A stretch of 64,000 nt of DNA from Patescibacteria group bacterium (lineage in GTDB: Bacteria; Patescibacteriota; Patescibacteriia; 2-01-FULL-39-33). A program made the position numbers and the translations under genes. Positions 30,285 to 61,831 of this stretch are shown piece by piece. Below the pieces are notes generated by a model. That model did no database searches, was not told the origin of the DNA, and was given only the letters and a program-made list of their open reading frames with translations. Location of the stretch: contig JBAZRV010000001.1 of assembly GCA_041662745.1 (NCBI GenBank), positions 69,837 through 133,836 of the forward strand. Reading direction: 5' to 3'. The number at the start of each line of letters is the position of its first letter. The stretch's first letter is position 1.

Positions 30285-30328
<44 letters not shown>

Positions 30329-30362: not shown

Positions 30363-30395
<33 letters not shown>

Positions 30396-30934
30396 GAACC
30401 TGGTCGTCGATATGGACTCTTGGACCAGACTAGCCTGTTATCCCCGGAGTAGCTTTTATCCGATGAGCTTCCACCATCCTACATTGAATGGTCGGATCAC
30501 TAAATTCTACTTTCGTAACTGCTCGACTTGCAGGTCTCGCAGTAAAGCTGGCTTGTGCTTTTGCGCTATCACTCCGATTTCCATCCGGAGCTAGCCAACC
30601 TTTGTAAACGCCTCCGTTACATTTTGGGAGGCAACCGCCCCAGTTAAACTACCCACCATACACTGTCCCTCTCCCGGATTACGGGAGGAAGTTAGAATTA
30701 TAATATAACAAGGGTGGTATTTCACTGGCGCCCGAAGGCTCCCACCTATTCTAAACATATTAGATCACAATTCAGTGCAAAGTTGTAGTAAAGCTTCACG
30801 GGGTCTTTTCGTCTAACCACGGGTAGGAGGCATCTTCACCTCCCTTGCAATTTCGCTGAGTACTTCGCTGAGACAGTTGTCAAGTCGTTATGCCATTCGT
30901 GCGGGACGGAACTTACCCGTCAAGGAATTTCGCT

Positions 30935-32457: not shown

Positions 32458-32488
<31 letters not shown>

Positions 32489-33987
32489 TTGTCGCGGTCT
32501 TGATACCACCTTTTACACTTAACATAGATTTAGGGACCTTAATTGGCGATCTGGGCTGTTTCCCTTTTGACTGATGGACCTTAGCGCCCATAGTCTGACT
32601 TCCGAAATAAAGATTACCGGTATTCGGAGTTTGATTGAAGACAGTAACCTTGCGGACCTGTCCTCATTCAGTGCTCTACCCCCGGGTCTATTTTCGAAGC
32701 TAGCCCTGAAGCTATTTCGAGGAGAACCAGCTATCACGAAGTTCGATTGGAATTTCTCCGCTATCCACAGCTCATCCCCAAGTGTTGTACAGCTTGTGGG
32801 TTCGGGCCTTCCCAGACTGTTACATCTGGTTCACCCTGGCCATGGATAGATCACCTCGTTTCGGGTCTTATCCGCGCTACAATTGTTCGGACTATTAATC
32901 CTCGCTTTCACTGTGCCTTCTCCCCGAAGGGATTAAGCAAGCAACGCAGAATAAACTCGTTGGCTCATTCTTCAATAGGAACGCCGTCATCCAGAATTCG
33001 TATTGCTACGACCTTGGACTCCGACTCGTTTGTAAGCAAATGGTTTCAGATACTATTTCATCGCCCTAACCGGGCTGCTTTTCACCTTTCCCTCACGGTA
33101 CTTGTTCGCTATCGATCATCAAAAGTATTTAGCCTTGCCATATAGTCATGGCGGATTCCTACAAGATTTCACGAGTCCTGTAGTACTTTAGATTATAACG
33201 ACGGAAGTACGATTCTTTTCGCGTACGGGGCTTTCACCCGCTCTGGCCGGCTGTTCCAAAACCGTTCCGCTAAAAATTTTATTCCGCTCGGATACAAGTG
33301 CAATCCGCTGGTTATAATCATCACCCCAAAGCAGCAACGGGCACTCCTTTATGCCGACGCTACGCTTTCCCCTTGCGGGAAAAGTTTCACACCGGCAACA
33401 CTGCTAAGGTTTAGGCTGCTCCGCTTTCGCTCGCCACTACTCGCGGAATGCAATCCATAGATCCGTGTCCTGCTTACGCAGAAAACGGAACTAAGGATTC
33501 AATTTTTTCTTTTCCTCCAGCTACTGAGATGTTTCACTTCGCTGGGTTTGCGTTTGTAACCTATGAATTCAGTTACAAATGACGCGGGTTTGCCGCGCCG
33601 GGTTTCCCCATTCGGATATCTCCGGATCAAAGGTTGCTTGCCACCTCCCCGAAGCTTTTCGCAGGCTGCTACGTCCTTCATCGCCTTTTGATGTCTAGGC
33701 ATCCACCATTCGCCCTTAATGTTTAATCGCAAGAATCTGGATAACTTATAAAAAAGAAAATTGCCTTATTCTGTCATTCCCGAAAATTTGCAGTGAGTTT
33801 TCGACTAATGTCGAAACGAACCAAAATTTATCGGGAATCCAGCATTAAGAATTTCCTCTTGTAAGAGTTTTTCCTTATTCTGTATTTTATTACTAAAATA
33901 CTAAAAGTATGTACTCATTAATAATTGCAATTCGCTGCCACGCCCATAAATTTGGCGCGGCATTAAATTACCCATTTCTTTACTATG

Positions 33988-35740: not shown

Positions 35741-35769
35741 TTGACAAATATTATTTTTTTTGCTAAGAT
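35741..35769 (+). promoter_or_regulatory. sigma70-like promoter (TTGACA, 17-nt spacer, TAAGAT) for the 7-gene operon
   Basis: Consensus -35, about 190 nt upstream of the 35957 start codon, downstream of the 35596 terminator. Confidence 0.4.
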
Positions 35770-35956
35770 AAGCAATCGCTTTAGGCCGATAATTCGGCGT
35801 AAAGGTGCGGACTTTGACAACTTAATAGCTTTAAAAATAAGGAGGAAAAGTGAATTAGGTAACACCAAGATACGCGATGTATTATTGGCGATTAAACCCT
35901 TAAAAACATCAAAGTTGCGCCGCTTAGCGGGTCAGCGACAACAAGGAGCTGTGATC

Positions 35957-37267
35957 ATGGCGACGGAACAAACGGACAGTGGCAACTTTTTGAACAGCAT
36001 GTTGCAGAATCTTGATACTGCCAGCCAAAAATTGGAACAAAGACCGGCAGCGACCAATTTGGGCTTTGACATCAACGCCTTACTTGGCGATATGCGGCAA
36101 GGCCTGGAAACAGCCGTCAAAGACAAGAGACCGATTTTCTCCCTGGACATCAAAAGCCGTTTACAGACGGCCGACTGGGAGCAAGTCCGTGTCAACTTAG
36201 TCAAAGAAAAGATGGATTTGGCCGGCATGATGGCCAATCTCAATATCGTACTGGAAGGGCTGGGGGCCGAGGTGATTCAACTCAAAGAGATGACACCCAA
36301 AGAAAAGGTCTCCCTGGAACAGGCCGGCGAAAGAATCAAAGAAGCCGAGCTTGCTTTGGCCAAGGCGGAAACAAAACGCTTGTTCCGCAAGAGCGCCACT
36401 CTCAAGGCTCAGGCCGGCTTAGCGTCCGCCAAACAACTGGAAGTGGCGACTAAGGAACGCATTAACAGAGCGATGCGTGATCGGATTAATAATGCAACGA
36501 TTGAAGATAGCCTGACAGCCTACAAACTGGCTTGCGACCGGCTCTTAAAAGCCATGCAGGCGCGCGCTCAATCTCAGAAAAAGCAATTGGAGCAAGACAA
36601 GTCGCAGAAACGGCTGGCGTTTGAAACGCACGCGCAAGCGACCGAGGCCTGCGAAAAGATTGAACAACAAATCAATGCGCTCAAGGGCGAGTTGGCCGAA
36701 GCCGAGCAAACCCTAATAACGATGGACAAGTCCGATAAGGGCTTTGCCAAACAGGACCAAAAAACTTCCGATTTGAAACAAACATTGAATGCCTTGCAGG
36801 GCAAGTACAACATTTGCATGGCAATCGCTCAGGAAGCGCAGAACTTTGCGCATCAATTGGATCTTCATGTCCAGACGATTAATGACCTTTTGACCATCAA
36901 CCTCACCTGGCAAGCCATGATCACTAAGCAGGTGGAATACCGCCAAACAACGGTGCGTTCCTGGCTGGAAGCCACCAAGTCCCATCAGGATTTGGCGTCG
37001 GCCGAAGAATTGAACCGAGCCGGTCGCGGAGTTGATGCCAGGAGCATGGCCAGTATGGCGGAAATCAGAGCCGCAGCGCAGAAAGCGCTAGTCAAAGCGC
37101 TTCAAGAGATTCCGGAGTGGCTCAGGCTCTACCATGAAATCATGGCGGCTTCCAACCAACAAGACCGGCAATTTCGCGGTGACGTAGAGGAGCAAATCAA
37201 GCTGTTTCAAAAAAATTACGGTTTTGATCTGAAAAAAGAGTCATTCTTCGGAGATAATGAGAAATAA
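35957..37267 (+). CDS. long coiled-coil hypothetical protein (436 aa), first gene of the unannotated operon
   Basis: Trimmed to the ATG at 35957, which has a CAAGGAG SD. Almost entirely helical, with heptad-like repeats rich in A, E, K, Q and L. Confidence 0.6.
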   Translation: MATEQTDSGNFLNSMLQNLDTASQKLEQRPAATNLGFDINALLGDMRQGLETAVKDKRPIFSLDIKSRLQTADWEQVRVNLVKEKMDLAGMMANLNIVLEGLGAEVIQLKEMTPKEKVSLEQAGERIKEAELALAKAETKRLFRKSATLKAQAGLASAKQLEVATKERINRAMRDRINNATIEDSLTAYKLACDRLLKAMQARAQSQKKQLEQDKSQKRLAFETHAQATEACEKIEQQINALKGELAEAEQTLITMDKSDKGFAKQDQKTSDLKQTLNALQGKYNICMAIAQEAQNFAHQLDLHVQTINDLLTINLTWQAMITKQVEYRQTTVRSWLEATKSHQDLASAEELNRAGRGVDARSMASMAEIRAAAQKALVKALQEIPEWLRLYHEIMAASNQQDRQFRGDVEEQIKLFQKNYGFDLKKESFFGDNEK

Positions 37268-37352
37268 ATAACACACGCAACGGAGGAGATCCTTAATCTT
37301 GGATCTCCTCCTTTTTCTTTCACTACGGCTAATCGCCATGAAAGGAGTTGTT

Positions 37353-38585
37353 ATGGGAGGACTATCATTTTTTGGCCAGGGATTAAGCACGGTTGACATT
37401 ACCCCCTCTGACTTAAGACGATCTGCTGACGAGCTTAACAGATTAGTCGGTGAGGATTTTACCAACGGCGGCAGCATGGATTTTGCTTTGCTGGAGGATA
37501 CCGACGAATACGTCAAATATTTCGCTCAGCAACTCCGGGTAATAAAAATCCTGCTGTCCTGGTGCCATAAAATCGGCAACGATGCCGGCAACCAAACCGG
37601 CATCATTATTGATTTTCTAAAACGTTTTTCTTACACCCTGGAATGCCTGCGGATGAAATACGTCCACAATAACCAGCATCGCCTGCGGGTGGACTTGACC
37701 GAATCCGGCTTCCCCAATTTTATTGAGCCGGATAATTTGAGAATTGATCTTCTGCAACGCGACGAACGATTGGCCAGTTTGCCCGGATCGGATCGCCTGA
37801 AAAAGTCAGCGCTGGAATATATGTTCAGCCATCTGGCCGAAGCCGAGGATATTTTGGCGATTTTGGGCGAACGATCTTATTTTTCCATGCTGACGGAAGA
37901 CAAGTTGTTCCTGCCGTTTACGGCCGGAGAACTGGCAATCTTGAAGTCAGACAACCCTAAAGCGCGTTATTACAGTTTCGCTTGGGCTTGTTTTGACTTT
38001 GCCACTAACCGTCCCTATTTATATCTGATGCATTTTGCATACGATAATGATTGCGAACCGCTGGAAGAACGCGGCCAGAACTGGAAAGAATTCCGGCACA
38101 TCATCACCAATGTCGGCTCGCGGGCTCCCCAGCTCGGCATCCTGGCTTTGGACATTGATGATCGCTTGGCTAACGTTCATCCTAAGGCCGTCAGGCGCAT
38201 CAGTTTGGGCCCGCTATATTCCAAGTTCCTTTGCAATAACCCGTCAGCAACCGCTGACAAGTGGCAGGAGGCTTGGTGTCGGATTATGACGGAATTCAGT
38301 CGGAAGGAAGACGATTTTGTCTTGTTGCTGACCGAAGAAGAAGTCATTTCCGAACGGCAAGAAGTTTATGGCCGACCCCTGCGTCGCAAAGTCCGGGAGA
38401 TCTTTAAAATCAATGAACTCTCTATGGAATGTCTGAACCGGCAAGTTTCCGCAGTCAAGCATTATTGCGTTTTGCCTCATTGTTTGTTGCAACAGGCCGT
38501 CAATGATCCCCAGCTTTGCGAGTTGGGCTTTGCCGGTTTTAAATGCGTAACCTTCAACGGGGAGGATTCAATTAATGGGAGATAA
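37353..38585 (+). CDS. hypothetical protein (410 aa). Its N-terminal FGQGLSTVDITPSDL motif is shared with the 40612 gene.
   Basis: Trimmed to the ATG at 37353 (AAAGGAG SD). The N-terminus aligns with the N-terminus of the 40612..41916 protein. Confidence 0.55.
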   Translation: MGGLSFFGQGLSTVDITPSDLRRSADELNRLVGEDFTNGGSMDFALLEDTDEYVKYFAQQLRVIKILLSWCHKIGNDAGNQTGIIIDFLKRFSYTLECLRMKYVHNNQHRLRVDLTESGFPNFIEPDNLRIDLLQRDERLASLPGSDRLKKSALEYMFSHLAEAEDILAILGERSYFSMLTEDKLFLPFTAGELAILKSDNPKARYYSFAWACFDFATNRPYLYLMHFAYDNDCEPLEERGQNWKEFRHIITNVGSRAPQLGILALDIDDRLANVHPKAVRRISLGPLYSKFLCNNPSATADKWQEAWCRIMTEFSRKEDDFVLLLTEEEVISERQEVYGRPLRRKVREIFKINELSMECLNRQVSAVKHYCVLPHCLLQQAVNDPQLCELGFAGFKCVTFNGEDSINGR

Positions 38586-40527
38586 AAACGGCTCATGCGT
38601 GCCGATTACGGCAGAGCAACTCAAGCCTTTTGATGTTTTTGCCGGCAAATTGATACAAAGCGCCGGTTGGCAACCCAAAAAGCCGCTAACGGCGCCTTCA
38701 GCCGACGGCGGATTAAAATTTAGCGAATCAATGCCGATGGAAGAAAGAATCAATTGGCTGGAACTCATTAAACAGTACAACCCCAACGGAATCATTAATT
38801 CCGCCAACGTCAACCAACTGCTCAATTCCTTGTACACGGGAATCGGCATCGGCTGTTACGTAGTGGAAATGTATGCTAAAAGTTCGGGATTGGCCAAATT
38901 GCTTGATGACAATTCGCGTCAACGGCTGAATGAAGGACAAAAAGCGGAATTTTCCAAAAAGCTGGCAACGGCTGCGGCCGTCGCCCAGTTCAGCTTCGCT
39001 TCCTTCGTCTCTTGGTCATTGTCGCGTTACCAAGGCGAAAAACTTGATTCCCTGTCTATGGATTTTCCCGGTTATCCGGAAATCTGCTTGACTGACTACT
39101 TGCGCGGTTTCAACTGCCTGTTAGTCTACATGGGAAAGTTCGTCAAAGAATCGGGAAAAATCAGAACTGATCTGGATCTTCTGAAGGCCGTCCAAGTGGC
39201 GGCTCAGGGAGCGCTGGACGAAATCAAACTGCGTCGCGACTCGTTGGAATACACCCAATTCTTCACCGATGTGGCGTACAAGCTGGAAGGCGAAGATTTT
39301 ACTATTTCCGGTTTTGAAAACAGATTAAACAACGGCACGATTGGCGTGGAGTTTAAGCGGGTTGACATCAAAACCATTGTCGGCAATCGCGATGCCAAGC
39401 GTTTTTTCCAACGATTGGCTGTACGCGCGGCTTGCTATAAAGTGGCGGAGAGACGCAACGTCATGTACGATTTAGGGGGTATGCCGGCCGCCAGCATCGG
39501 CTTTGGCATTCCCGGTACGGGTAAAACCATGATGATTGGCGCTTTTTCCACGATGCTTTACGATCTCTGTAAGTGGCTGGAATTGCCCTATGTATTTGAT
39601 CCTCATCCTCCCAATATCGTTTCTACCTACCAAGGCGGATCCAGAGAACGGGCCGAGGAGTGGTGGCAACGCATCTTGAATCCCAATAGGATTTCCTTCG
39701 GTCCGGCCGATGATGCTGAAGTTAATTATGAAGACAGGACCCGCCCAGGCGTGTCTGCCGGCGTCCGTGAAGTTATCGGCGCGGCTCTAACCAACCTGGA
39801 AGGGGCCTCAGCTATTTGGCGAGGCAACGCCGTAGTATTTTTTCTAACCAATATCCCCGATCAACTGGATCCGGCTTTGCTGTCGCGCATTGTAACCCGT
39901 TTCAAAATTGATGGGGCTACCACCTGGCAGGATTTCCTGGACCAGGACCACTTATGGTGGAAACGCATTGCCGAAATCGATCCTGCTTTCATTGCCATGG
40001 CCGATCCTGACGATTACGAATACTTGTTTGCTCAACGCCTGATCGGCAGCATGGCCGAGACTTACATAGGCTATCAGCAACCAAGGGAACGGGTCATTCT
40101 GGATATTTTCAACCGCGTGAATAAAGAACGCGACATAAAGGAACAAAAGTTTTTTGCTCAACTCTATCAAGAAATCCAAAAACAATTTCCCAAATTCAGT
40201 TCGCGCGATGTCCGTAATATCCAACGGGCCGTTGACGATCGGTTGTTAGACTTTGATTTTCCTGAGGCCTGGATGTCCGATCCGGAAATATTTTTCCGTC
40301 AGCCTTACGACCGGCAAAAAATCATGGTGTTGGAATTAATGCGAGAGAATATGCAAGGAAAATCGTTCGCGGAAATCAGATTCCAAGAGGCGATGCGCTA
40401 TCTGGACAATATGGTGGCGATTGTTGACCTGGGCCATCGTCGCGAAGTGGAACGAGCAAGCGAACAAATGATGATCCAAGCGGAAGCCAGCCGGGCAATC
40501 CAAAGCCGATTGGAACCGCGCAAATAA
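38575..40527 (+). CDS. classical-clade AAA+ ATPase (650 aa) with an unknown N-terminal domain of about 310 aa and a non-canonical Walker B
   Basis: Walker A GFGIPGTGKT. Second region of homology / sensor-1 FFLTNIPDQLDPALLSRIVTRF, compare FtsH [20 protein letters not shown]. The Walker B position reads ISFGPADDAE rather than hhhhDE. Overlaps the upstream gene by 11 nt, with a GGGGAGGA SD. Confidence 0.75.
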   Translation: MGDKNGSCVPITAEQLKPFDVFAGKLIQSAGWQPKKPLTAPSADGGLKFSESMPMEERINWLELIKQYNPNGIINSANVNQLLNSLYTGIGIGCYVVEMYAKSSGLAKLLDDNSRQRLNEGQKAEFSKKLATAAAVAQFSFASFVSWSLSRYQGEKLDSLSMDFPGYPEICLTDYLRGFNCLLVYMGKFVKESGKIRTDLDLLKAVQVAAQGALDEIKLRRDSLEYTQFFTDVAYKLEGEDFTISGFENRLNNGTIGVEFKRVDIKTIVGNRDAKRFFQRLAVRAACYKVAERRNVMYDLGGMPAASIGFGIPGTGKTMMIGAFSTMLYDLCKWLELPYVFDPHPPNIVSTYQGGSRERAEEWWQRILNPNRISFGPADDAEVNYEDRTRPGVSAGVREVIGAALTNLEGASAIWRGNAVVFFLTNIPDQLDPALLSRIVTRFKIDGATTWQDFLDQDHLWWKRIAEIDPAFIAMADPDDYEYLFAQRLIGSMAETYIGYQQPRERVILDIFNRVNKERDIKEQKFFAQLYQEIQKQFPKFSSRDVRNIQRAVDDRLLDFDFPEAWMSDPEIFFRQPYDRQKIMVLELMRENMQGKSFAEIRFQEAMRYLDNMVAIVDLGHRREVERASEQMMIQAEASRAIQSRLEPRK

Positions 40528-40611
40528 GGCCTCTCCCAATGGAGGGGGTTACGGTAAAAAACCTAACCCCCTCCAAAATGCTGGTGGGGCTAAACTGAGG
40601 AAAGGACGAAG

Positions 40612-41916
40612 ATGGATAAACTACTTGCCGATGCCGGATTATTCGGTCAGGGCTTGACCCTGATAGATACGCCGCAACTTGTAGAAAGATACAACGATTG
40701 CCTTAAACGATTGGGCCTTCCCCCGACTCAACTAACGTCATTTTCCATTGACGGCATCGGTTGGTCGCCGGAAATAGCCCAGGAAACTGGCAATCCGCTG
40801 TATCTGTCGCATGGCGTGGCTAATCAACTGGCGATAATCATTTCGCCCGATCAAGAACATAAGCCGATTTACTTTCCCTTCAGTTCGTTTGATCGTTCGC
40901 TCCTGGCGGAGTTCTTCAAAAAATTCCGTCAAGCTATTACGGATATCACTACGACTTCCGGCATAGCCCTGGATATTGATCAAGAACTGACGTCTTATGA
41001 AACGATCTTGGATTTGCTCTTAGTGGAGAACATCACGGTTATAAGTTATTGCGATAATTTGATCCAGGCGGCTCAACGTCAAAGAGAGCTGACGGAAAGA
41101 TTCCTTGCCCCGGGCGACAACTGGGCCGACAGGGAATTGGCCCGGCAAATTATCGCCAGCGCTCAACAGTATGGCAATTTGCGGTACCGTACGGTAGAAA
41201 TACCGGAATGGCGCTACGATAATCTGGGCTGTTTTTATAGCCGGGCGCTGGACGGCGTGTTTATATTCCGCAATCTGCCCGGCGGCGACTTTATGGTCGT
41301 TGAGAACGGCAAATTGGCCAGAAAGAACCGAGCGACGCAAATTGACATTTTTCAATTGACTGACAAGCGTTTAATAGATCGTTTGGAAGAGGCCGGACTA
41401 ATCGCTGTTGATCTCTCCTGGTATCGGGATCATCCCGAAATTTTGGAAGAAAAACGCGATTGTCTGCTGATTGACATTCTTTCTGCCGCTGATCCCGAAA
41501 TTGATTATCTGCATTTGACTGAACCGCAAAAAAAATCGCGCTTAAGAAATCTCGGTGTCAAGCTTCCCAAAATTTACAAGGATCTGGAACGGCTGATCAA
41601 ACGATTGGGGCAGGATGAGGTTGAAAGTTTTAATGAACTATCAGATGAACTTAAACTTTTGCTCCTGCAACCGCACCCGGATCTGGAAGAAGAAATGTGG
41701 GAATTGGTCGGCATGCTGATTGCGCGCTTGCAACCCTGGCGGTTGCTTATCACGTTTATCTGCGATAAGAATCTGTTCTATAAACGCTATGATGACTGGC
41801 CGAAAGGAAAACGGCTTTGGGCCATCGCTACGTTGAAAGAACATTACCGGCCCAAAATGAATATTCTAAGAGAACGAGCCGCTGAAGCAGAATCAACTGA
41901 AGACCTGCAAAAATAA
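40612..41916 (+). CDS. hypothetical protein (434 aa), N-terminal paralog of the 37353 gene (shared FGQGLTLIDTPQL motif)
   Basis: GAAAGGA SD. The N-terminal motif is shared with the 37353 protein. Confidence 0.55.
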   Translation: MDKLLADAGLFGQGLTLIDTPQLVERYNDCLKRLGLPPTQLTSFSIDGIGWSPEIAQETGNPLYLSHGVANQLAIIISPDQEHKPIYFPFSSFDRSLLAEFFKKFRQAITDITTTSGIALDIDQELTSYETILDLLLVENITVISYCDNLIQAAQRQRELTERFLAPGDNWADRELARQIIASAQQYGNLRYRTVEIPEWRYDNLGCFYSRALDGVFIFRNLPGGDFMVVENGKLARKNRATQIDIFQLTDKRLIDRLEEAGLIAVDLSWYRDHPEILEEKRDCLLIDILSAADPEIDYLHLTEPQKKSRLRNLGVKLPKIYKDLERLIKRLGQDEVESFNELSDELKLLLLQPHPDLEEEMWELVGMLIARLQPWRLLITFICDKNLFYKRYDDWPKGKRLWAIATLKEHYRPKMNILRERAAEAESTEDLQK

Positions 41917-41962
41917 ATTTTAATCGCTATCACCCTGAAACCGCAAAACAAGGAGGACAATC

Positions 41963-42754
41963 ATGCTGATTTTCTTATCTTACGCTCTGTTGTTTACCGC
42001 TCTCGGAATTTTTTGGTTCGGCATTGACAAATACTTCGGAGTAGTCGTCTTCTCTTTCGTTTACAACCTAACCCACAGCAAGCGTTTGCCGGCCGATCGG
42101 GTTTCCGGTTTCATCTTGGGCCGCAAAGCGCGAGGACGATTCTACTCGGCTTTGCTTCTGGGTTTCGTCAATTGGCGGTCATGCCTCTACTTTATGACGC
42201 ATGGCCCCGTAGTCAACTCTTTCCTCTTGCTACTGGCTGTCGTTTTTACGATGGTCGGCTTCTATTGCGGTCCTATGGTCATGCGACTGTTGGGCAGACG
42301 CGACCAACTGCTTAAACATCTGGACGTAATTGACCAGATTGAAGCCGGAGAAATCCAAGTCGGCGATGAAGCCAAAAAGAAGGCCAAAAGCTGGTGGAAA
42401 AATTTAAAGGGCGGTTTAGCTGATTGGAAAAGCGCTCTCAGGGATGCGATCAACGCAACCAAAAATCCGGAACAAGCCGCGGTTATTGACACGGCTCCCG
42501 CGGAAACGGAAGAGATGCCGGCAACGGCAGCGACCGAGCTATCCGCCCTGCAACAAGAACTTGCCGGTGTACAGGCCAGCATTAATCTTATGGGCGAGCA
42601 GGCCAAAACCGCTCCATCAAACAGTAATGGCGATGAGGCGATTCAACCACCAAATGAAAACCATTTGAAAAAAGCGAAAGCCTGTCTGGAAAAATTTTCC
42701 CGAGGCGAGGATCCCGGCCTGGGGGCGTCCGATTCCGACCTCAAAAATGAATAG
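41963..42754 (+). CDS. hypothetical membrane protein (263 aa; about 3 TM helices plus a coiled-coil / disordered C-terminus)
   Basis: AAGGAGG SD. Hydrophobic N-terminal half and a helical, polar C-terminal half. Confidence 0.5.
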   Translation: MLIFLSYALLFTALGIFWFGIDKYFGVVVFSFVYNLTHSKRLPADRVSGFILGRKARGRFYSALLLGFVNWRSCLYFMTHGPVVNSFLLLLAVVFTMVGFYCGPMVMRLLGRRDQLLKHLDVIDQIEAGEIQVGDEAKKKAKSWWKNLKGGLADWKSALRDAINATKNPEQAAVIDTAPAETEEMPATAATELSALQQELAGVQASINLMGEQAKTAPSNSNGDEAIQPPNENHLKKAKACLEKFSRGEDPGLGASDSDLKNE

Positions 42755-42762
42755 GAGAAGGC

Positions 42763-44388
42763 ATGATGAGTGAAAAACAAGATAAGGGCGGTCGGCTATA
42801 CTGGCTGTTCAAACACAGCGCCGGCTGGGCGCTGAATTTTGCCAAACGCCACTGGCTGATTTTTACCATCCTCCTGTTGGCAACTTGTCTGGAACTGTTT
42901 ATCGCCCGAGGTTATGTGTACGGGTATATTATCACTGTCAGGAAATTCTTCGGTTCTTTTTTGGCAATAATTTCAGCCCTAGGCGTTTTCCGTTGGCTAT
43001 ACCGCAAATACCGTTGGCGCGGAAAACTATTGCTGGTAATCTTCTATTTGCTTGTTAGTTATGGCATTTATGAAGTCGGCAAACCGATTCATCATTACTT
43101 TGCGCAGTTTTACTGCTACAAAATAACTGATTTCGTAGAGCTGGATCAATTGCCGGAAACGGCCCATGAGCGGATCTTGCCGCTCAACTCCGTTTTCTCG
43201 CAAGCGCGGGAATTGGTGCAGGACAATGTCCAACCGGCCGAACCCCACTTCGTACGAATTGACGACCAATACCGTTTCACTATGGGCATTGAACCCACTC
43301 CGCTTCTGCCCCGTATTTTTTCCGGAATCCGTCAAGTTTATAATATTGACGGCGCCTCCCCGTCGCCTGATTGGGGTTTGCAAAATCTGGTTGATGTCAG
43401 ATTTGAAACCGGAGAAGGACTTAAGTGGAGCAGGAACACTTACATTGCCACCAGTCGCGCCTTCGGATTGTGGCGCTATTTCAACTATGAGCCGGACGGC
43501 GTTATCTACCTTAAAGACGACTCCGGAAAAATGGTGCAAGCGGTGCCACTGATCCGTTGGAAAGGGTTATTGTTTCCCCGGCCAACTTTTGGCGGCGTGC
43601 AAGTAATTGAACAATCGCCGGACGGCATCTGGCAAAGCCTCAGGCGAGTCCTGTTCGGCTGCGGTTATTATGTCTCGCCGGCCAAAATGAAAAACTATCC
43701 GTTCTTAAACGGACAGAACGTTCTATCTTACAAGGTGTCTCGTTATGTCGCTGAAAGCTTCAAATTCCATAAAGGGCTTTCTGCTCCTCTGCCTTGGATC
43801 CATCGAGGCGATGTCAGAATCGCCAATATGCCCGAGGATATGAACGACCAACCATTCACTATCTTTTTCCGTCTGGGACAACTTGGCGGTAAAGATGCTC
43901 TTTATCACTACTTCTCACTTCAACCCTACTCGGAAAAATCGCAAGGGTTATCCGTTTCCCTGTTCGTGCCGGCTGATGGCCTGGGAAAAATATTTATCTT
44001 CTCTCATCACCAGAAAGAACCGATGCTGGGAGTGACCGCCGTAACCAATAAAGTCATCGGCGATCATAAGTTTTTTGACTGGACAATCAATCGGCCGGTT
44101 GAACAACGGCCCTACATCACCAAAGTAAACGGCAAGATCCGCTTTTACTGGCTGACGACCGTCGTTACCCTGGACAATAAGGACGCCAAACATTATATTG
44201 CCGGCAGTCGTCCCGACGTAATCTTGACCGACGCGGCCAATCAATGCGTTTATTGGATGGAGTCAGCTGACTCCAGTGCTTGGAAAAAGCAACTGGAAGC
44301 GAATGTCAGTTTCAAGCCAGTTATGGGAGGACCGCCTCAAGCAGAAAAAGTGGAACCGGCGACGATCCAGCCGATTTCCGCAGAATAA
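42763..44388 (+). CDS. hypothetical membrane protein (541 aa; N-terminal TM bundle plus a large soluble domain)
   Basis: AGGAGAAGG SD. 3-4 N-terminal TM helices, then an aromatic-rich globular domain. Confidence 0.55.
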   Translation: MMSEKQDKGGRLYWLFKHSAGWALNFAKRHWLIFTILLLATCLELFIARGYVYGYIITVRKFFGSFLAIISALGVFRWLYRKYRWRGKLLLVIFYLLVSYGIYEVGKPIHHYFAQFYCYKITDFVELDQLPETAHERILPLNSVFSQARELVQDNVQPAEPHFVRIDDQYRFTMGIEPTPLLPRIFSGIRQVYNIDGASPSPDWGLQNLVDVRFETGEGLKWSRNTYIATSRAFGLWRYFNYEPDGVIYLKDDSGKMVQAVPLIRWKGLLFPRPTFGGVQVIEQSPDGIWQSLRRVLFGCGYYVSPAKMKNYPFLNGQNVLSYKVSRYVAESFKFHKGLSAPLPWIHRGDVRIANMPEDMNDQPFTIFFRLGQLGGKDALYHYFSLQPYSEKSQGLSVSLFVPADGLGKIFIFSHHQKEPMLGVTAVTNKVIGDHKFFDWTINRPVEQRPYITKVNGKIRFYWLTTVVTLDNKDAKHYIAGSRPDVILTDAANQCVYWMESADSSAWKKQLEANVSFKPVMGGPPQAEKVEPATIQPISAE

Positions 44389-50177: not shown

Positions 50178-53100
50178 TTAATCTTTTAAGTTAGGATTGT
50201 ATCTAAATAAAGCTTCTCGGCCGTCTTTATAACCATCGCCGTCACTGTCGGCATTAGCCGGTTGAGTATTATAGATGTTAGTCTCATCGCTATCGGCCAG
50301 ACCATCTTTATCGCTATCAATAAAACCGGCATCGTTCCTGATATAATCATTCTCAAAGCTTGATTGGATAATGATTAATCGGTTCTTCCATTTTTCCCCA
50401 AAAATATCAGCTGCTTCCTGCTCGCTAATATATTTCAAATTATTATTGCCAAAAACCATGTAAACTCTGGGACTATTATCAAAACTAATCAAGTTTGATC
50501 CGGGATTAGCCCTAACATGATCCCCTTCGGTTAACGCATCAAAGGTTGCTTGGTTGATTACTTCTACTTTTTGTTGCGCCCAAGCGCCGGTATGCCAAGT
50601 CCAATAAGTCGCCTCGTTAACATATAAATGCCTTTTATTATCGTCAGTCACATGATAAACAGCTGGATTGTTTGCTACTTTTATCATTCTGCCGGCAGTA
50701 TAAATTCCCTTCCCAACCGTTGAAGCCGTCGAACTGCTTTCAATAATTGAACTGCCACACGGCTGGCTCTCGGCCGGCCTCGTGCTGTTTTGTTTACAGC
50801 CGTGACTATCGGTGCAGGTTCTAATCTGCGTACCATTAGAACAAGCCATCCAAGCCGTGCAACCCCACTTAGGCGTACAGGCTGAAGCGCAGGTTTGAGA
50901 AAGCGCCGGCCTATTGGCAACCGTACCGCAACTGCTTGAATCGGCGCATGTTCTGGTTTGATTATTGCCGGAACAAGCAGACCAAGAGCCACAAGTCCAA
51001 TTTTCCGTACAATCCGATCCGCTTGAAGCGCAGGTTTGAGAAAGTGCCGGTCTGTTGGCAACCGTACCGCAACCATTACTGTCAGTGCAGGTCCTGATCT
51101 GGCTATTATTAGAACAAGCAGACCAAGAACCACAAGTCCAATTTTCCGTGCAACCGGAAGCTGTCGTTGGTTTGATTTTAATTGCAATATCCTTTGAGAA
51201 ACTGGGTATTGATCCGGTTAATACTCCGCCGACGGTCTGAACCTGCCCCTCGCTAATCAAACCGCCCGTTCCCCAAGTATTATAATATTGTATTTTGTAA
51301 GTACCGGCGCTAAGGCCGGGTAAAGTGAAAGTAGTATTGCTTATAACTCCATTGTTTTCTAATCCATACTGACTCCCGATATCATAAACCCATAAGTAAG
51401 CGGAATTATTTCCAACTAAACTGATATTTTGCAAAATATGAGAATTAAAAGCAACTGAAGTGGGACAGCTGAAAGAATAATCTTTGATATAAAACCAATC
51501 GCGGCCGGTATTTTTAACCTGGATTGTGTGTGTTCCGGCCGGGATAGAAGCCTCCAATTCCAGATTTGAGGCTCCGGCGGCCGGCGCCAATGAGGCAGCC
51601 ACCACCCCATCAACCAAAATCTCCATGCTGCTCGGCAAATAAGCGTAATTGGAAACAGAGGGAATAATAAGCTTGATAGTTGCCGGCGCATCAAAATTTG
51701 TATGAAAAATTGGATCGGAACGAAGGCTTTCTTGGATTGTTCCATGGAGATTAACGGTCATTTTTTCAAAATCTTCTATTTGCCCGTACTGATCAACATT
51801 AAATATTCGCTGTTGAGGCACATCATAAAAATTAATAAGGCCGGGAAGATTAGAACGAACAACAGTCTCTCTGGCCATCGTTTGAGTGGTTACCTGCACC
51901 TCAGTATTTATAAGGCCCTCATCGCCCCAAGTCTCGCCGTCCATAAAAAGGAATGGCGGTTTGAAAAGTTGATATAACCTTAAACTGCCACCGACATAAG
52001 AGGCGTACCAAATATGGGCTGATGATTTTAAAAACAACGATTCCCATATAATATTATGAAGATGCAATCCTTCCGCTAATTGCGAACGATACGGTTCGGA
52101 GAAGGAAGAATAAGTGAGTTCCGGCGCGTCATCGTCAGCTCCTAAACCAAATTCACCCGTAAAAATCGGCTTGCCATACTGACGAAGTTTTTCTGTTGAT
52201 GATTTAAGATAAGCGAAAATATCAGTGGTATAGGAATGAAGCTGTATTATATCCATATTGGACAACGACCAAAACGGTGTTTCGTTGGCTTCAGTGTATC
52301 CGGCCTCAACGCTGGTAGTAATGGGGTGGTCAAAAGGATCAAGCTCCTTGATAAACCGCGCCATCTCCTCATGCCAAGCAACGATAGCGTTTCGGTTGCT
52401 GGCGGCTCCGCTGGAATACATCACCTCATTAAATAATTCCCAACTTTGGACGGACGTGGAATAACCCCAGCGGGCAATAATATAACGATATTTATTTTTG
52501 GTTAGACGAATTGCTTCTGCGTCGGTAAAAAATTGTTGCGGGTTGGTCAGCCAACCGCCATAATCTGAATTAGCGCTGTTATAAGGATTATTGCGCCACT
52601 CGTCATAATTAAGAAATTGCTGAAAATATTGCAAAACAAGCTGAATGGCAACACCATTTTGTTCGGCAAGCTCAATAACCCTGTCTAATCGCCAAGAAAT
52701 TTCAAGGCCGTATTGACCAACGCCATGATAATAGGGCGGCGGGCTGGTAATATTTTTGGGAGTCCATTCAATATTTTCTCCGGTATTATAACTGCTCATC
52801 CAAACTCTTTCCCAAGTAACGCCATTATCATGCATTTTTTGAAAATGAGCTGTCCACCAGGCTAGGCCGGTATTGTTACCGGCGCAAATTTGATTATAGC
52901 CAATAGGGGCAAATTGTTCTCCTGTTGTCCGTCGCAACAAAGAATGATCGCGTGAATCTATGCGGATAAAACCCTTTTTTGCCGAGGAGACGCATTGAAA
53001 ACTATTGGCGCCTGGAATAGTCTGGGTGCCAATGCTGTCAGTCACACTAATGGTATAACTATGCGTGCCGAATTGGGTGGGAGCAAAACGAGCTTTCCAA

Positions 53101-53534
53101 GAAGGATTACGGCCATTGCCATAACGTTCGGGATTGCCGGCTGTAATATCATATTCCATATAATAAAAAGCAGGGACAACCTTACTTGTTCCATCCGGTT
53201 GGATAAAAGTCACATCCACCTTTATCTGGTCGGCATCAAAAGGATTTTTATAAGTCGCGGTCTCAGAAGGATTTGAATAATTTCCTTCCAAAGTAAAGGT
53301 TAATTCAAATTTTTCATATTGGCCGATACTGTTTGAGTTTTGGGATTGGGAAATAACCGGATTATCACCCGTCAATGCTTGAGCCACATTAATCTGTCTT
53401 GCTAGGCCAAACCCAAAAAACATTAAAATTAAAGTAATAAATAAAAAAACAGCTGGCCATAAAAACTTGGCTATAGCTGTTTCAATTTTGTTACGACCGT
53501 TTAATTTCTTTATTTTCCGTGAAAATAAAGCCAT
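50178..53534 (-). CDS. large secreted/anchored multidomain protein: GH5-like (clan GH-A) catalytic domain, three Cys-rich 40-aa repeats, and C-terminal TSP type-3-like calcium-binding Asp repeats
   Basis: N-terminal signal anchor. ELFNEV (acid/base NE) and IFTGEFG (nucleophile GEF) motifs of GH5. Three repeats of CTENWTCGSWSACS..QIRTCTDS.GCGTVANRPALSQTCAS. C-terminal DSDKDGLADSDE...DSDGDGYKDG. Confidence 0.6.
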   Translation of the reverse strand: MALFSRKIKKLNGRNKIETAIAKFLWPAVFLFITLILMFFGFGLARQINVAQALTGDNPVISQSQNSNSIGQYEKFELTFTLEGNYSNPSETATYKNPFDADQIKVDVTFIQPDGTSKVVPAFYYMEYDITAGNPERYGNGRNPSWKARFAPTQFGTHSYTISVTDSIGTQTIPGANSFQCVSSAKKGFIRIDSRDHSLLRRTTGEQFAPIGYNQICAGNNTGLAWWTAHFQKMHDNGVTWERVWMSSYNTGENIEWTPKNITSPPPYYHGVGQYGLEISWRLDRVIELAEQNGVAIQLVLQYFQQFLNYDEWRNNPYNSANSDYGGWLTNPQQFFTDAEAIRLTKNKYRYIIARWGYSTSVQSWELFNEVMYSSGAASNRNAIVAWHEEMARFIKELDPFDHPITTSVEAGYTEANETPFWSLSNMDIIQLHSYTTDIFAYLKSSTEKLRQYGKPIFTGEFGLGADDDAPELTYSSFSEPYRSQLAEGLHLHNIIWESLFLKSSAHIWYASYVGGSLRLYQLFKPPFLFMDGETWGDEGLINTEVQVTTQTMARETVVRSNLPGLINFYDVPQQRIFNVDQYGQIEDFEKMTVNLHGTIQESLRSDPIFHTNFDAPATIKLIIPSVSNYAYLPSSMEILVDGVVAASLAPAAGASNLELEASIPAGTHTIQVKNTGRDWFYIKDYSFSCPTSVAFNSHILQNISLVGNNSAYLWVYDIGSQYGLENNGVISNTTFTLPGLSAGTYKIQYYNTWGTGGLISEGQVQTVGGVLTGSIPSFSKDIAIKIKPTTASGCTENWTCGSWSACSNNSQIRTCTDSNGCGTVANRPALSQTCASSGSDCTENWTCGSWSACSGNNQTRTCADSSSCGTVANRPALSQTCASACTPKWGCTAWMACSNGTQIRTCTDSHGCKQNSTRPAESQPCGSSIIESSSTASTVGKGIYTAGRMIKVANNPAVYHVTDDNKRHLYVNEATYWTWHTGAWAQQKVEVINQATFDALTEGDHVRANPGSNLISFDNSPRVYMVFGNNNLKYISEQEAADIFGEKWKNRLIIIQSSFENDYIRNDAGFIDSDKDGLADSDETNIYNTQPANADSDGDGYKDGREALFRYNPNLKD

Positions 53535-53771: not shown

Positions 53772-53866
53772 TAAATAAAATTACGAACTGCGAATTAAAA
53801 ACTACGATTTAATCATTTTTTTCGTAATTCATAATTCGCAGTTCGTAATTATTTTACAATTCAGGA

Positions 53867-54181
53867 TGCCGAGGGCGAGAATTGAACTCGCGACACAAAG
53901 ATTTTCCATATGCTTGCTTGAGTTTCCTCAAGGATTGGACTATTTCATCTTCGTATTCTTACGAACTTAGAAGTCGGGCGCTAATGTGAGATTATTGTTG
54001 GGACTCACTCACTAGTCTCTACACCTTTTCCGGAAATTTTACCCGCCGGAACTTGGCTCGAGATTGCCTATTCGTTAAAAACGAATTTAGGTTTCCTCGA
54101 ATTCACCCGATTTTCATTTTAAGGTTTCCCTTAAACGGACCAAAAATCAGTCTTCTGCTCTACCACTGAGCTACCTCGGCA
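53867..54181 (-). tRNA. tRNA-Phe(GAA) interrupted by a 243-nt group I intron in the anticodon loop (exon 1 54150..54181, intron 53907..54149, exon 2 53867..53906)
   Basis: The exons join to GCCGAGGUAGCUCAGUGGUAGAGCAGAAGACU|GAAAAUCUUUGUGUCGCGAGUUCAAUUCUCGCCCUCGGCA, which resembles E. coli tRNA-Phe including the GUGUC variable loop. The intron starts with G, ends with G, and follows a U. Its core contains CGAGCCAAG...AAGGUGUAGAGACUAG, as in Azoarcus-type IC3 introns. Confidence 0.75.
53907..54149 (-). ncRNA. group I self-splicing intron (IC3-like) inside tRNA-Phe
   Basis: P1: exon GACU pairs with intron GGUC (G-U at the splice site). P2: UUUAAGG-GAAA-CCUUAAA with a GNRA loop. The P7 region reads GUAGAGACUAG. 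The last nucleotide is G. Confidence 0.65.
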
Positions 54182-54882: not shown

Positions 54883-56358
<1,476 letters not shown>

Positions 56359-56607
56359 AGATGAATAAAAGGGTTCCTTATCAACACCGAAGTGAGATAA
56401 AGAAATTTCATTCAACTGGCTTTGCAACTAGATTACGATCAGTTGCCAACCGTTTTTTGCTTTATGACTTGCGCTAAGGGCGCGCCGGCGAACCGGTTGT
56501 CATAAAGTTGGATTGAAAGTATTGTAGTGAATTCGGTTTACTCCGCGGGGGCGGAAACGAATTCATAATAAACTCAAATTTAAATTCTTTGGTTTGGTGC
56601 TTTTTAC

Positions 56608-58728: not shown

Positions 58729-58758
58729 TTGTCAAGAGGATGAAAAATCAAGTATAAT
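58729..58758 (+). promoter_or_regulatory. sigma70-like promoter (TTGTCA, 18-nt spacer, TATAAT)
   Basis: Near-consensus elements 47 nt upstream of the ATG at 58805. The track ORF start at 58700 lies inside this promoter. Confidence 0.45.
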
Positions 58759-58804: not shown

Positions 58805-61800
58805 ATGACTGATACTTTAGGACCATCACTGGAAGACCTTATGACGGGAGAGGCAACCGAAGAAGAATCGGCCGGAGAAAAACTCCAACAGAAATTGACG
58901 CAAATAAAAATCAAGGAAAAAGAGGACGAGGTGGCGAAAAACGCCGACGCCTTGGGTTTGCCTTATATTAATTTAGTCGGTTTCCCTATTTCTCCCGACG
59001 CGCTAAGCTCTATTGCTGAAGCAGCGGCCAAAGCCGCTCAAGCGATTTGTTTTTTCAATAACGGTTCGGAGTTGCGCGTCGGTTGCGTAAATTATAATGA
59101 TGAAGTCAAAAAAATAGTGGCTGACTTGCAAGAAAAATTCCACGCCAATGTCCTGCCTTATCTTATTTCCCAACACAGTTTTGAACGCTCGGCTAAATTA
59201 TATGACTCTCTGCCTAAAATCACCCGACTGGTGGGCGGAGTGGAAATAAAAAAAGAAGATATTGAGCGTTTTGAAAAAGAAATAACCACTTTCAAAGATT
59301 TAAATGAAAAAATAAATAAAGTTAGCATCACTGACGTAGTGGCGATTATTTTGGCAGCCGGCCTTAAGGCCGAAGCTTCGGATGTCCATATTGAAGCCGA
59401 GGAGAAAGGCATCATAGTGCGCTTGCGCGTGGATGGCGTTTTGCATGATTCGGCCATGATTGAAAAAGATAAATGGAAAAAAATAATTGCTCGCCTTAAA
59501 GTTTTGGCGCGAGTCAAAATCAATATTGATGACAAGCCCCAAGACGGCCGTTTCACTATTTTTTTAGAAGATGACGCCGTGGATGTCAGAACATCCTTCC
59601 TGCCGACTAATTTTGGCGAGAGCGTGGTTATGCGTTTACTGCATTCCCAGTCAGTCGCCCTGTCTTTTGAACAGCTGGGTTTATTGCCGGCGGCCTTTAA
59701 AACATTGGAGGCGGAAATTAAAAAACCCAACGGCTTAATCTTGACTGCCGGCCCTACCGGCTCGGGTAAAACCACTACCCTGTATGCAATTCTCAATAAA
59801 CTCAATCATCCGGACGTAAAAATCATCACTTTGGAAGATCCGATTGAATATCGCCTTAAGGGCATTAACCAATCACAGGTAGACCCCAAGAAAGATTATA
59901 CTTTTGCCAAGGGCTTGCGTTCTATTTTGCGCCAAGATCCGGATATTGTAATGGTTGGCGAAATTCGCGACAATGAGACGGCTGATATCGCCACTCAAGC
60001 GGCCCTGACCGGCCACCTGGTGCTTTCTACCGTCCATACCAACGATGCGGCCGGCGTGATCCCGCGCTTAATGGATATGGGCATTAAACCCTTCTTTATT
60101 GTTCCGTCCATTAACGCCGTTATCGGCCAACGCTTGGTGCGTAAACTTTGCGAGAAATGCAAACAACCGCATCAAATTACAGAAGAGGAAAAAACCACCA
60201 TAGAGAAGATTTTGGCGACCATCTCGCCCAAATCGGGCATTGATGTTCCGGCCAACCTGCCCCAAATGTACGAACCCGGTCCGGGTTGCGAGACTTGTGG
60301 CGGCATCGGCTATAAGGGCCGCATCGGCATCTATGAAATTTTCACCATGACCGACAATATCAAAACCTTGACTATGGCCGGAGCGGCGGCTTTTGAAATT
60401 CTCAAACAAGCGATTGAAAACGGCATGATTACCATGTTGCAAGACGGCATCATTAAATCTTTAAACGGCGTTACTGATGTGCAAGAAGTTTTCCGCGTTA
60501 TCGGCAAATTGGATTATGTGGAAGAACTTTATGATATTGTCATTACTCAAACAATCGGCCGTGGCATCAGTTTGACTGCCAAAGAATTAATAAAAGGCGA
60601 GGAACTATCCAAAAACTTAAAACAAATCCAAGAAAGCTTAGAAAATCTGCCCGCCAAAGAATTAACGGCTCTATTAATGGCTGCAGCGCTTAAAGCGGAT
60701 GCCGGCGATATTCATATTGAACCGACCGATACCGGCGTTAAGGTGCGCTTCAGAATTGATGGCATCTTATATGATATGGCTACGCTGGATAAAAGCCAAT
60801 ACCTGCCGGTTTTATCCAATATGAAAATTTTAGCCGGCATGCCCACCAATATTAAAAAGGCGGCTTGGGACGGACGGTTCGGCATCTTTACGCCACAAGC
60901 TAAATTGGATTGTCGCATTTCCATTATCTCCGGCGGTTACGGTGAAACAATCGTTATCCGTATTTTATCGGCGCAAGCCGCCAGCCTGAGAGTTGAGGAT
61001 TTGGGTATGCGCGAGTATTCTTTAAGGTTGCTGCAAGGGTCAATGGAAAAGACTAAGGGTATTATTGTCACTACCGGGCCGACGGGCTCGGGCAAAACCA
61101 CTACCCTGTATGCCCTGCTTAATCAACTTAACAAACCGGACACCAAGATTATTACCATAGAAGATCCGATTGAGTATCATTTGGCCGGCGTAATGCAGAC
61201 GCAAATTGATGAGGCTCAAGGCTACACTTTTGCCGCGGCCATGCGTTCCTTGTTGCGTCAAAATCCCAACATCATGATGATCGGAGAAATCCGCGATAGC
61301 GAGACGGCTAAAACAGCGATTGAAGCGGCTTTGACCGGCCACTTAGTCTTATCCACCATCCACACCAATTCCGCGGCCGGCGCCTTCCCGCGTTTCTTGG
61401 GGTTAGGCATTGAACCTCATATTTTAGCCAACTCCTTAGAGTGCACTATTGGCCAACGTTTAGTCAGAAAAATCTGTCCTTATTGCAAACAGCCGGTTGA
61501 GCTTAATCCGGAGATTGCTGGGGAGGTGGAAAAAATAATCAAAAGCATCAATACCAAATCGGGAGCCAAAATACCTGATAAACCGACTTATTTCAAAGCG
61601 GTTGGTTGCGAAAAATGCGGCGGTTTGGGTTACAAAGGACGTTTAGGCATCTATGAAGTCATACCGAATACCGCTGAAATGCAAAAAGTGGTGCAAGGAC
61701 CGGCGGTTACCAATTTGGAAATTGAAGCCTTAGCCGTTAAAGAAGGGGTAGTTCTAATGCTGCAGGACGGTATCCTAAAGGCTATGGCCGGAGAAACAAC

Positions 61801-61831
61801 AGTGGAAGAAGTATTCCGAGTAGCCAAATAG
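58805..61831 (+). CDS. fused tandem GspE/PilB-type secretion/pilus ATPase (two complete N-domain plus ATPase-core modules in one 1008-aa protein)
   Basis: Two Walker A boxes TAGPTGSGKTTTLYA / TTGPTGSGKTTTLYA. Two Asp-box/Walker B regions (IVMVGEIRD / IMMIGEIRD). Two His boxes (LVLSTVHTN / LVLSTIHTN). Two tetracysteine motifs (CEKCKQP...CETCGG / CPYCKQP...CEKCGG). Confidence 0.8.
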   Translation: MTDTLGPSLEDLMTGEATEEESAGEKLQQKLTQIKIKEKEDEVAKNADALGLPYINLVGFPISPDALSSIAEAAAKAAQAICFFNNGSELRVGCVNYNDEVKKIVADLQEKFHANVLPYLISQHSFERSAKLYDSLPKITRLVGGVEIKKEDIERFEKEITTFKDLNEKINKVSITDVVAIILAAGLKAEASDVHIEAEEKGIIVRLRVDGVLHDSAMIEKDKWKKIIARLKVLARVKINIDDKPQDGRFTIFLEDDAVDVRTSFLPTNFGESVVMRLLHSQSVALSFEQLGLLPAAFKTLEAEIKKPNGLILTAGPTGSGKTTTLYAILNKLNHPDVKIITLEDPIEYRLKGINQSQVDPKKDYTFAKGLRSILRQDPDIVMVGEIRDNETADIATQAALTGHLVLSTVHTNDAAGVIPRLMDMGIKPFFIVPSINAVIGQRLVRKLCEKCKQPHQITEEEKTTIEKILATISPKSGIDVPANLPQMYEPGPGCETCGGIGYKGRIGIYEIFTMTDNIKTLTMAGAAAFEILKQAIENGMITMLQDGIIKSLNGVTDVQEVFRVIGKLDYVEELYDIVITQTIGRGISLTAKELIKGEELSKNLKQIQESLENLPAKELTALLMAAALKADAGDIHIEPTDTGVKVRFRIDGILYDMATLDKSQYLPVLSNMKILAGMPTNIKKAAWDGRFGIFTPQAKLDCRISIISGGYGETIVIRILSAQAASLRVEDLGMREYSLRLLQGSMEKTKGIIVTTGPTGSGKTTTLYALLNQLNKPDTKIITIEDPIEYHLAGVMQTQIDEAQGYTFAAAMRSLLRQNPNIMMIGEIRDSETAKTAIEAALTGHLVLSTIHTNSAAGAFPRFLGLGIEPHILANSLECTIGQRLVRKICPYCKQPVELNPEIAGEVEKIIKSINTKSGAKIPDKPTYFKAVGCEKCGGLGYKGRLGIYEVIPNTAEMQKVVQGPAVTNLEIEALAVKEGVVLMLQDGILKAMAGETTVEEVFRVAK

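Follow-up and report, generated by a model that had tools for sequence, protein, structure and literature searches.

A tandem two-module PilB/GspE-class ATPase conserved in Patescibacteria and encoded apart from pilus genes

How might a ring-forming secretion motor be built when two of its ATPase modules are joined in a single polypeptide? This question is raised by a locus in a 64,000-nucleotide stretch of DNA from a Patescibacteria group bacterium (assembly GCA_041662745.1, contig JBAZRV010000001.1, positions 69,837 to 133,836 of the forward strand; hereafter the window), in which one uninterrupted open reading frame (ORF) of 1008 codons (plus stop) fills positions 58805-61831 of the + strand. 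PilB, GspE and PilT motors are normally homohexamers, and the initial annotation of the locus had read this ORF as a tandem fusion of such an ATPase, a reading that is upheld; every catalytic motif is retained in both halves. The exact protein is present in public databases (P0001; Patescibacteria group, 249-kb contig), where the tandem ATPase is known only as a 'GspE/PulE family protein'. No description of a tandem PilB/GspE was found in the literature, our coverage of subscription journals being incomplete so that an earlier description is possible; the literature found likewise contains nothing on the covalent joining of two such motors, on how broadly it is spread in Patescibacteria, on its repeated origin or on its orphan genomic setting with a linked partner.

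Layout and class of the two modules

The tandem ATPase is laid out as N1-N2a-CTDa-linker-N2b-CTDb, and its coding sequence comprises the following features:

58805..61831, + strand: coding sequence of the tandem two-module PilB/GspE-class ATPase, 1008 amino acids (aa), identical to database protein P0001
58922..59209, + strand: N1 domain (GspE-N/MshEN-type alpha/beta), aa ~40-135, first half only, placed by the NCBIfam PilB model (which aligns from aa 19) and by the secondary structure of an AlphaFold2 (AF2) model
59210..59326, + strand: N1-N2 linker, aa 136-174, homologous to the inter-module linker by BLASTP of the halves, with a low predicted local distance difference test (pLDDT) score at aa 138-147
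59327..59674, + strand: N2a, aa 175-290, with the conserved QDGRF and VR arginines
59675..60502, + strand: CTDa RecA-like core, aa 291-566 (Walker A 316-323, Asp box 340-349, Walker B 381-389, His box 400-413, Cys 449/452/495/498)
60503..60652, + strand: inter-module linker, aa 567-616, predicted helical, with invariant G567, Y571, Y576, G585 and G587
60653..61000, + strand: N2b, aa 617-732
61001..61828, + strand: CTDb RecA-like core, aa 733-1008 (Walker A 758-765, Asp box 782-791, Walker B 823-831, His box 842-855, Cys 891/894/935/938)

Pfam T2SSE (PF00437) matches two stretches of the protein (E 2e-228), and the NCBIfam GspE and PilB models each align twice along it. Both modules carry a Walker A motif (GPTGSGKT, aa 316 and 758), an Asp box (aa 340 and 782), a Walker B motif (GEIRD, aa 381 and 823), a His box (TGH, aa 402 and 844) and a CxxC...CxxC tetracysteine at the positions given above, which confirms the presence of two GspE/PilB-type ATPase modules in one polypeptide. 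Modules a and b are 45% identical over 437 residues (BLASTP, E 3e-134). The half-to-half alignment begins at aa 131 of the first half and pairs aa 131-180 with aa 574-622, and the repeated unit therefore consists of the linker, N2 and the CTD. The proposal that the protein contains two full copies of the N-domain plus core thus holds for N2 and the core, both of which are repeated, but not for N1, which is confined to the first half: the half-to-half alignment finds no N1 domain in module b, and the inter-module linker of ~50 residues occupies the place where N1 attaches in module a. Matches to PF05157 (N1) are faint or weak in relatives, one single-module orthologue giving a value of 5.5e-6. 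The N1 domain required of the GspE/PilB subfamily is accordingly present once, in module a, where a docking role is predicted.

Two in-frame starts are available, namely a GTG at 58700 and an ATG at 58805, of which the former would add 35 residues. The ATG is most probably the true start, since homologues begin at the Met equivalent to 58805 (M1 is conserved at a level of at least 90%) and since a promoter-like site falls 3' of the alternative GTG:

58729..58758, + strand: promoter-like site TTGTCA-18-TATAAT (11/12), a consensus match only, 47 nt 5' of ATG 58805

When the halves were scored separately against NCBIfam models, both ranked GspE first, followed by PilB, TfpB and ComGA, with PilT far behind. 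Relative to the GspE (TIGR02533) and PilB (TIGR02538) cutoffs of 630 and 676 bits, module a scores 494 and 474 bits and module b 416 and 385 bits, while the whole tandem protein scores 899 and 848 bits and passes these equivalog cutoffs only because the scores of its two modules add up. Each module alone remains below both cutoffs, and the modules are divergent members of the GspE/PilB subfamily. The ComGA cutoff of 300 bits (NF041000) is missed by both modules (246 and 239 bits), and the whole protein scores 99.5 and 109.8 bits against VirB11 and TrbB (TIGR02788 and TIGR02782; cutoffs 250 and 305 bits). Additionally, a regular-expression search for the MshE-type c-di-GMP motif, RLGxx(L/V/I)(L/V/I)xxG(L/V/I)(L/V/I)xxxxLxxxLxxQ, returned no match.

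The best sequence matches of both halves in the PDB are GspE, PilB and PilF (E 1e-83 to 1e-101; identity 42-44%). The AF2 model of the whole chain has a pLDDT of 84.4, with confident domains, and a predicted template modelling score (pTM) of 0.50; its comparison by Foldseek with single PilB, PilF and GspE chains of the PDB gave target TM-scores of 0.90-0.94. Every Foldseek match in the PDB spans one module, and no solved tandem secretion ATPase was found there. From their sequences, both modules are classed as assembly-type (PilB/GspE) and neither as PilT-like.

Conservation and history of the fusion

A similarity search with P0001 listed more than 120 protein clusters of 992-1029 aa, with 60-92% identity and 95-100% query coverage. 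In a scan of one genome per GTDB species 239 relatives were obtained, and the best 80, which were inspected, are all full-length fusions (58-92% identity) from genomes labelled Buchananbacteria, Falkowbacteria, Parcubacteria or Patescibacteria. Furthermore, ORF calling on 91 loci of independent assemblies (from NCBI, JGI, ENA and Logan, with contigs of 0.3-0.9 Mb included) recovered one continuous ORF of ~1005 aa in all 91, and the tandem ATPase is carried by a closed chromosome (CP066698.1, 977 kb). At the DNA level the halves display 71-74% identity only over the best-conserved 137-199 nt, and no long exact repeat between them that could cause a misjoin is present. The fusion is thus real and not an assembly artefact, which settles the check for conservation against a frame-fused artefact that had been proposed for this ORF. 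After clustering at 50% (1.84 billion representatives), ~14 clusters of 978-1018 aa align end to end with 40-61% identity, their named members being Parcubacteria or Paceibacterota; the next proteins below these clusters are single-module and ~550-590 aa in length.

Among 120 homologues the Walker A Lys, the Asp-box Glu, the Walker B Glu, the His-box histidines, the N2 arginines and the eight cysteines are invariant in both modules, and the other motif positions are nearly so. In the divergent clusters the motifs are largely kept and the changes are conservative (e.g. GPTSAGKT or GEIRS/N). From the invariant catalytic residues, both modules are predicted to bind and hydrolyse ATP. Mean pairwise identity amounts to 0.75 for CTDa against 0.69 for CTDb and to 0.70 for N2a against 0.65 for N2b, and the two modules appear to be under similar constraint; the inter-module linker is about as conserved as N1 (0.51 and 0.49, respectively). 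The isoelectric points of the modules of the window protein are 6.1 and 8.1, and charge complementarity between modules was considered and dropped, as just 21 of 86 sequences have a module b that is more basic than module a.

In neighbour-joining trees of the (N2 + CTD) modules, the window-type family falls into a clade of first-half (H1) modules and a clade of second-half (H2) modules, with 100% bootstrap each in both trees, indicating that the fusion is older than the diversification of this family. Single-module ATPases that are encoded next to a conserved membrane protein gene (the membrane partner, described below) are the sister group of the H1 clade, with 63% support. The trees fit a single-module ancestor that gained a second (linker + N2 + core) module at its C-terminus, and the tandem ATPase appears to be vertically inherited and the fusion old. 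As regards the origin of module b, by internal duplication or by fusion of a paralogue, the deep nodes are supported at just 25-53%. In three further tandem proteins, P0128, P0126 and P0136, the halves are sisters (bootstrap 100, 94 and 100; identity 74%, 56% and 44%, respectively). Since the halves of each are mutual nearest relatives, tandem fusion has arisen independently at least three further times, with the caution that P0128 is a singleton on a 7-kb contig. In P0136, which represents a separate 1047-aa lineage, module 1 is degenerate, without its Walker A lysine or its Asp box. The recurrence of fusion shows that such tandem proteins evolve readily, as would be expected from a reuse of existing ring interfaces. 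Stand-alone H2-type proteins (P0143, P0144 and P0166) were rejected as candidates, being singletons on contigs of 1.9-3.9 kb and probably fragments. The nearest single-module relative without the membrane partner, P0138, is also an orphan and adjoins DNA polymerase I; the gene 5' of it is cut by the contig end and is not partner-like in appearance.

Working form, rival readings and neighbouring genes

The rings formed by this ATPase family consist of six N2-CTD units, each N2 being packed against the CTD of the adjacent unit, and the platform protein in the pore is driven by ATP turnover (PMC6858323). As all native interfaces would remain right after tandem fusion, three chains could close one six-module pseudo-hexamer ring with alternating a and b modules, thereby reusing the subunit interfaces of the native homohexamer. 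The chemical symmetry of such a ring would be threefold, in place of the sixfold symmetry of the homohexamer, and its N1 docking domains would number three, not six. Its stoichiometry would match that of a trimeric platform protein, each of whose two cytoplasmic domains would contact one ATPase protomer. [quoted passage not shown] Such a ring would drive a membrane machine whose genes lie elsewhere in the genome, probably the apparatus of PilC, PilM, PilT and ComEC for pili and DNA uptake; PilB, PilC, PilM, PilT and ComEC have been reported from ABY1-class genomes (PMC11809585). A trimer forming a six-module ring is, with moderate confidence, considered to be the most likely working form, and we infer both this form and the identity of the driven machine.

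A number of points weigh against this interpretation. The solved PilB hexamers are C2 (CCOCCO; PMC6858323), whereas opposite positions of an abab ring would hold unlike modules. The AF2 model, being that of a monomer with the above-mentioned pTM of 0.50, leaves the relative placement of the modules undefined. A trimer and stacked rings are not separated by the data presented here. Neither module by itself reaches the NCBIfam equivalog cutoff for GspE or PilB. Finally, because the gene is never adjacent to pilus genes in the 91 + 46 related loci, its link to a pilus machine comes solely from family membership, and its conserved neighbour is a transporter-like membrane protein rather than PilC.

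The main rival to the three-chain ring is a two-tier ring of six chains (12 modules, ~680 kDa), as in KaiC, p97, NSF and ClpB-type tandem ATPases. The a modules would form one hexameric tier, stacked upon a second tier of b modules, with one ring engaging the membrane platform and the other serving as a booster or regulator. Stacking of rings is the rule for most natural tandem ASCE ATPases, PilT and PilU have been reported as stacked rings in situ, and the conserved, predicted-helical linker at the place of N1 attachment could hold a second ring at a set distance. In addition, two different extension ATPases, PilB and TfpB, are both required in Acinetobacter and may associate in a complex (PMC11656802). 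However, a second ring without N1 domains would have no obvious access to the membrane platform. Moreover, the two modules are near-equally constrained and retain intact catalytic residues, whereas many stacked tandem ATPases degenerate one tier. The two-tier arrangement is considered less likely, although it is the most serious of the alternatives to the three-chain ring.

The other alternative of substance arises from the genes that surround the ATPase. In the window, the tandem ATPase gene is flanked by khpA/trmD (divergent) and by a C39-like peptidase gene, tsaE and tsaD (convergent), and housekeeping genes run on for a further 10 kb, to dnaN and dnaA. No Pfam match to T2SSF/PilC, PilM/N/O, PilD or pilins was obtained among the 30 window ORFs, no prepilin motif was found in any frame of the whole 64-kb window, and no pilus or secretion partner genes are present in the 10 kb beyond it. 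The initial annotation had noted that pilin, PilC and PilM-Q genes are lacking in the remaining 2 kb of the window, an observation that thus extends to the entire window and 10 kb further. The C39-like cysteine peptidase (PF03412 / PF13529; 61915-62439, - strand), which is convergent with the ATPase, is a stand-alone protein of 174 aa with no adjacent ABC transporter, and is common to the window and its closest relative (L011) only.

To count neighbours in related loci, all ORFs of the 91 loci were clustered, and translin and Metallophos_2 identities were assigned by Pfam. Three genes recur next to the ATPase:

Directly 5' of the ATPase, same strand, median gap ~12 nt: polytopic membrane protein of ~326-341 aa (the membrane partner), 83/91 loci
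Directly 3' of the ATPase: translin-like gene, 76/91 loci
Next 3', often overlapping the translin stop: Metallophos_2 gene, 69/91 loci

The translin-like and Metallophos_2 genes are on the same strand as the ATPase, with tiny or overlapping gaps (e.g. L002:13020-14098). These two genes are also found 3' of single-module orthologues (L173). The membrane partner, which has no Pfam family and may be up to ~437 aa in length, is encoded behind FtsH (L008:8856-9881, L002:9017-9997, L093:7396-8709 and L094:10001-11047). Its AF2 model resembles choline-transporter-like proteins and CysZ, and its family of ~196 clusters is confined to the same lineages as the ATPase. The eight of 91 loci that lack the partner are those of the window and its closest relatives, and no partner was detected in the window by tblastn or by a six-frame hidden Markov model search. 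In ADurb.Bin326, whose ATPase is 75% identical to that of the window, the partner is located on another contig, still behind FtsH, which shows that in the window subclade the pair was separated by rearrangement and not lost.

A metagenome search from the partner side yielded 51 loci with enough downstream sequence. Directly 3' of the partner, 26 of these encode a single-module ATPase of ~570 aa and 11 a two-module ATPase of ~1010 aa, while 14 encode no ATPase. The wider conserved string reads S1 - FtsH - partner - ATPase - translin - phosphoesterase / TsaE, and the pairing of partner and ATPase persists where other neighbours change (L008 vs L002). No second T2SSE-type ATPase was found in the flanks of 91 + 46 related loci, in which pilC, pilM and pilin genes are never adjacent to the tandem ATPase either. 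Similarly, no type IV pilus genes are present within +-10 kb in the loci of seven annotated relatives, nor in those of two distant ones.

These neighbours raise the possibility that the ATPase family, whether single or tandem, is not a pilus motor and instead works with its co-inherited partner of choline-transporter/CysZ fold as a new two-component, ATP-driven membrane system, in which a PilB-class ring would act on the partner in place of a PilC platform, possibly tied to nucleic-acid handling, which could serve the uptake of nucleic acids or metabolites from a host. The position of the partner directly upstream and on the same strand in most of the 91 loci, the location of an ATPase directly 3' of the partner in 37 of the 51 metagenome loci, the survival of the pair when other neighbours change and the restriction of the partner family to the same lineages are all consistent with such a role, as are the downstream translin and Metallophos_2 genes and the lack of type IV pilus genes near the ATPase in any locus. 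Conversely, all of these genes stand within a conserved string of housekeeping genes (S1, FtsH, TsaE, tRNA synthetases), and the adjacency of partner and ATPase may therefore reflect synteny only. The pair is also split in the window subclade, and the N1 domain, which docks on PilM or GspL in known systems, is retained; to our knowledge, no PilB-like ATPase acts on a transporter-fold protein. A role outside pili is regarded as rather improbable. If it were true, the repeated independent fusions would reflect selection for a threefold-symmetric motor.

A chain that combines extension and retraction, with one half PilB-like and the other PilT-like, fares considerably worse. It had been suggested that the protein could mimic a PilB-PilT pair, following the general idea that diverged halves could specialise, and the halves are indeed only 45% identical. 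However, the PilT model (TIGR01420) scores 176 and 159 bits for the respective halves against a cutoff of 319 bits, and the PilT motif AIRNLIRE occurs in neither module. The tetracysteine, which is typical of assembly ATPases and missing from PilT, is kept in both, and an N1 domain, likewise foreign to PilT/PilU retraction ATPases, is present in module a. PilT matches in the PDB are ~200 bits weaker than the best matches for the first half, and no PilT chain was obtained at E 1e-30 for the second, the best matches of both being GspE, PilB and PilF. As class scores, PDB matches and motifs all point to the assembly type, the PilB-PilT reading is not supported and is deemed highly improbable. An artefact in which two adjacent genes were joined by a frameshift or a collapsed repeat can be dismissed, as nothing was found in its favour, while the uninterrupted ORF in 91 loci and more than 120 clusters, the invariant residues of the linker and the lack of a long exact repeat all stand against it.

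Other features of the window and comparison with known systems

The VirB2-like paralogs that had been noted at 8-10 kb of the window were identified as five T4SS_pilin paralogues:

8086-10370, - strand: five paralogous VirB2-like pilin genes (T4SS_pilin PF18895, by Pfam)

This array is followed by ORFs of 472 and 221 aa without a Pfam match, and then by a divergent ORF of 1056 aa (13383-16553) whose function is unassigned. VirB2-like arrays have been described for the type IV secretion system of Patescibacteria, and the array in the window is of that kind; in the same account the only mention of VirB11 concerns a single genome whose system is of the Gram-negative type, and the components listed there as widespread do not include it (PMC12102498).

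Several further features of the window lie apart from the ATPase. A group I intron (Rfam RF00028, 86 bits, 53916-54178) is located inside a tRNA gene (53864-54181, - strand), for which ARAGORN, with introns allowed, reports a 242-nt anticodon-loop intron and an anticodon read as GAA. Immediately downstream of the 16S rRNA gene, this intron-bearing tRNA gene is flanked by those for tRNA-Ile and tRNA-Pro. There is no linkage among the rRNA genes (29028-33729 and 54885-56359, - strand), the 16S gene being 21 kb from the 23S gene. The 23S match measures 3478 nt against a model of 2925 nt, corresponding to ~550 nt of insertions, and a LAGLIDADG homing-endonuclease ORF (29630-30181) is situated between the 23S 3' end and the 5S gene. 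A block of seven mostly unannotated same-strand genes (35741-44388, + strand), among them an AAA ATPase gene (38575-40527) and one for a DUF6638 protein (40612-41916), may constitute an accessory or defence island. The G+C fraction falls to 0.345 at 18000-20000, compared with ~0.45 elsewhere, in a region that encodes a CYTH-domain protein and a weak DUF5677 match. Lastly, an ORF of 1118 aa (50178-53534, - strand), the sole match of which is an N-terminal DUF5060, adjoins the tRNA and 16S region.

The order of ATP turnover around the ring (C2 vs C3 states) and the coupling of a six-subunit motor to its platform protein are matters of debate. A natural protein with chemically distinct, covalently linked neighbouring positions would allow every second catalytic site to be mutated, the number of sites required to be counted and the register between motor and platform to be fixed, tests that in homohexamers require artificial concatemers. 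Furthermore, the family occurs widely among Patescibacteria, for whose episymbiotic life pili and the machinery of DNA uptake are considered central, while its separation from pilus genes and its pairing with a transporter-fold protein raise the possibility of a non-pilus motor.

In comparison with PilB and GspE, the tandem ATPase is alike in that each module contains N2 and a RecA-like CTD with all motifs, and in that N1 is present in module a, but it differs in having two modules per chain, one N1 per two motors and a gene outside a pil or gsp operon. The partner-adjacent single-module ATPases (e.g. P0134, 584 aa, Candidatus Parcubacteria bacterium, MCX6742937.1; loci L097-L174) share its gene string and N1-N2-CTD layout; however, they comprise the first module alone, and no further ATPase gene is found in their vicinity. 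PilT-PilU and PilB-TfpB similarly place two related motors of the PilT/VirB11 family on one machine, PilT and PilU being physically stacked, yet these are separate polypeptides and genes and PilT and PilU are of the retraction type, whereas the window protein consists of two linked motors of the assembly type. KaiC, p97/NSF and ClpB are tandem ASCE/AAA+ ATPases that are known to form two stacked rings, and while they resemble the tandem ATPase in the internal duplication of a ring-forming ATPase domain, they belong to other ATPase families. The engineered GspE-Hcp1 fusion (PDB 4ksr/4kss), which is among the structure matches of the tandem ATPase, illustrates that covalent fusion can control the oligomeric state of a GspE ring, although that fusion is artificial and its partner is a non-ATPase scaffold.

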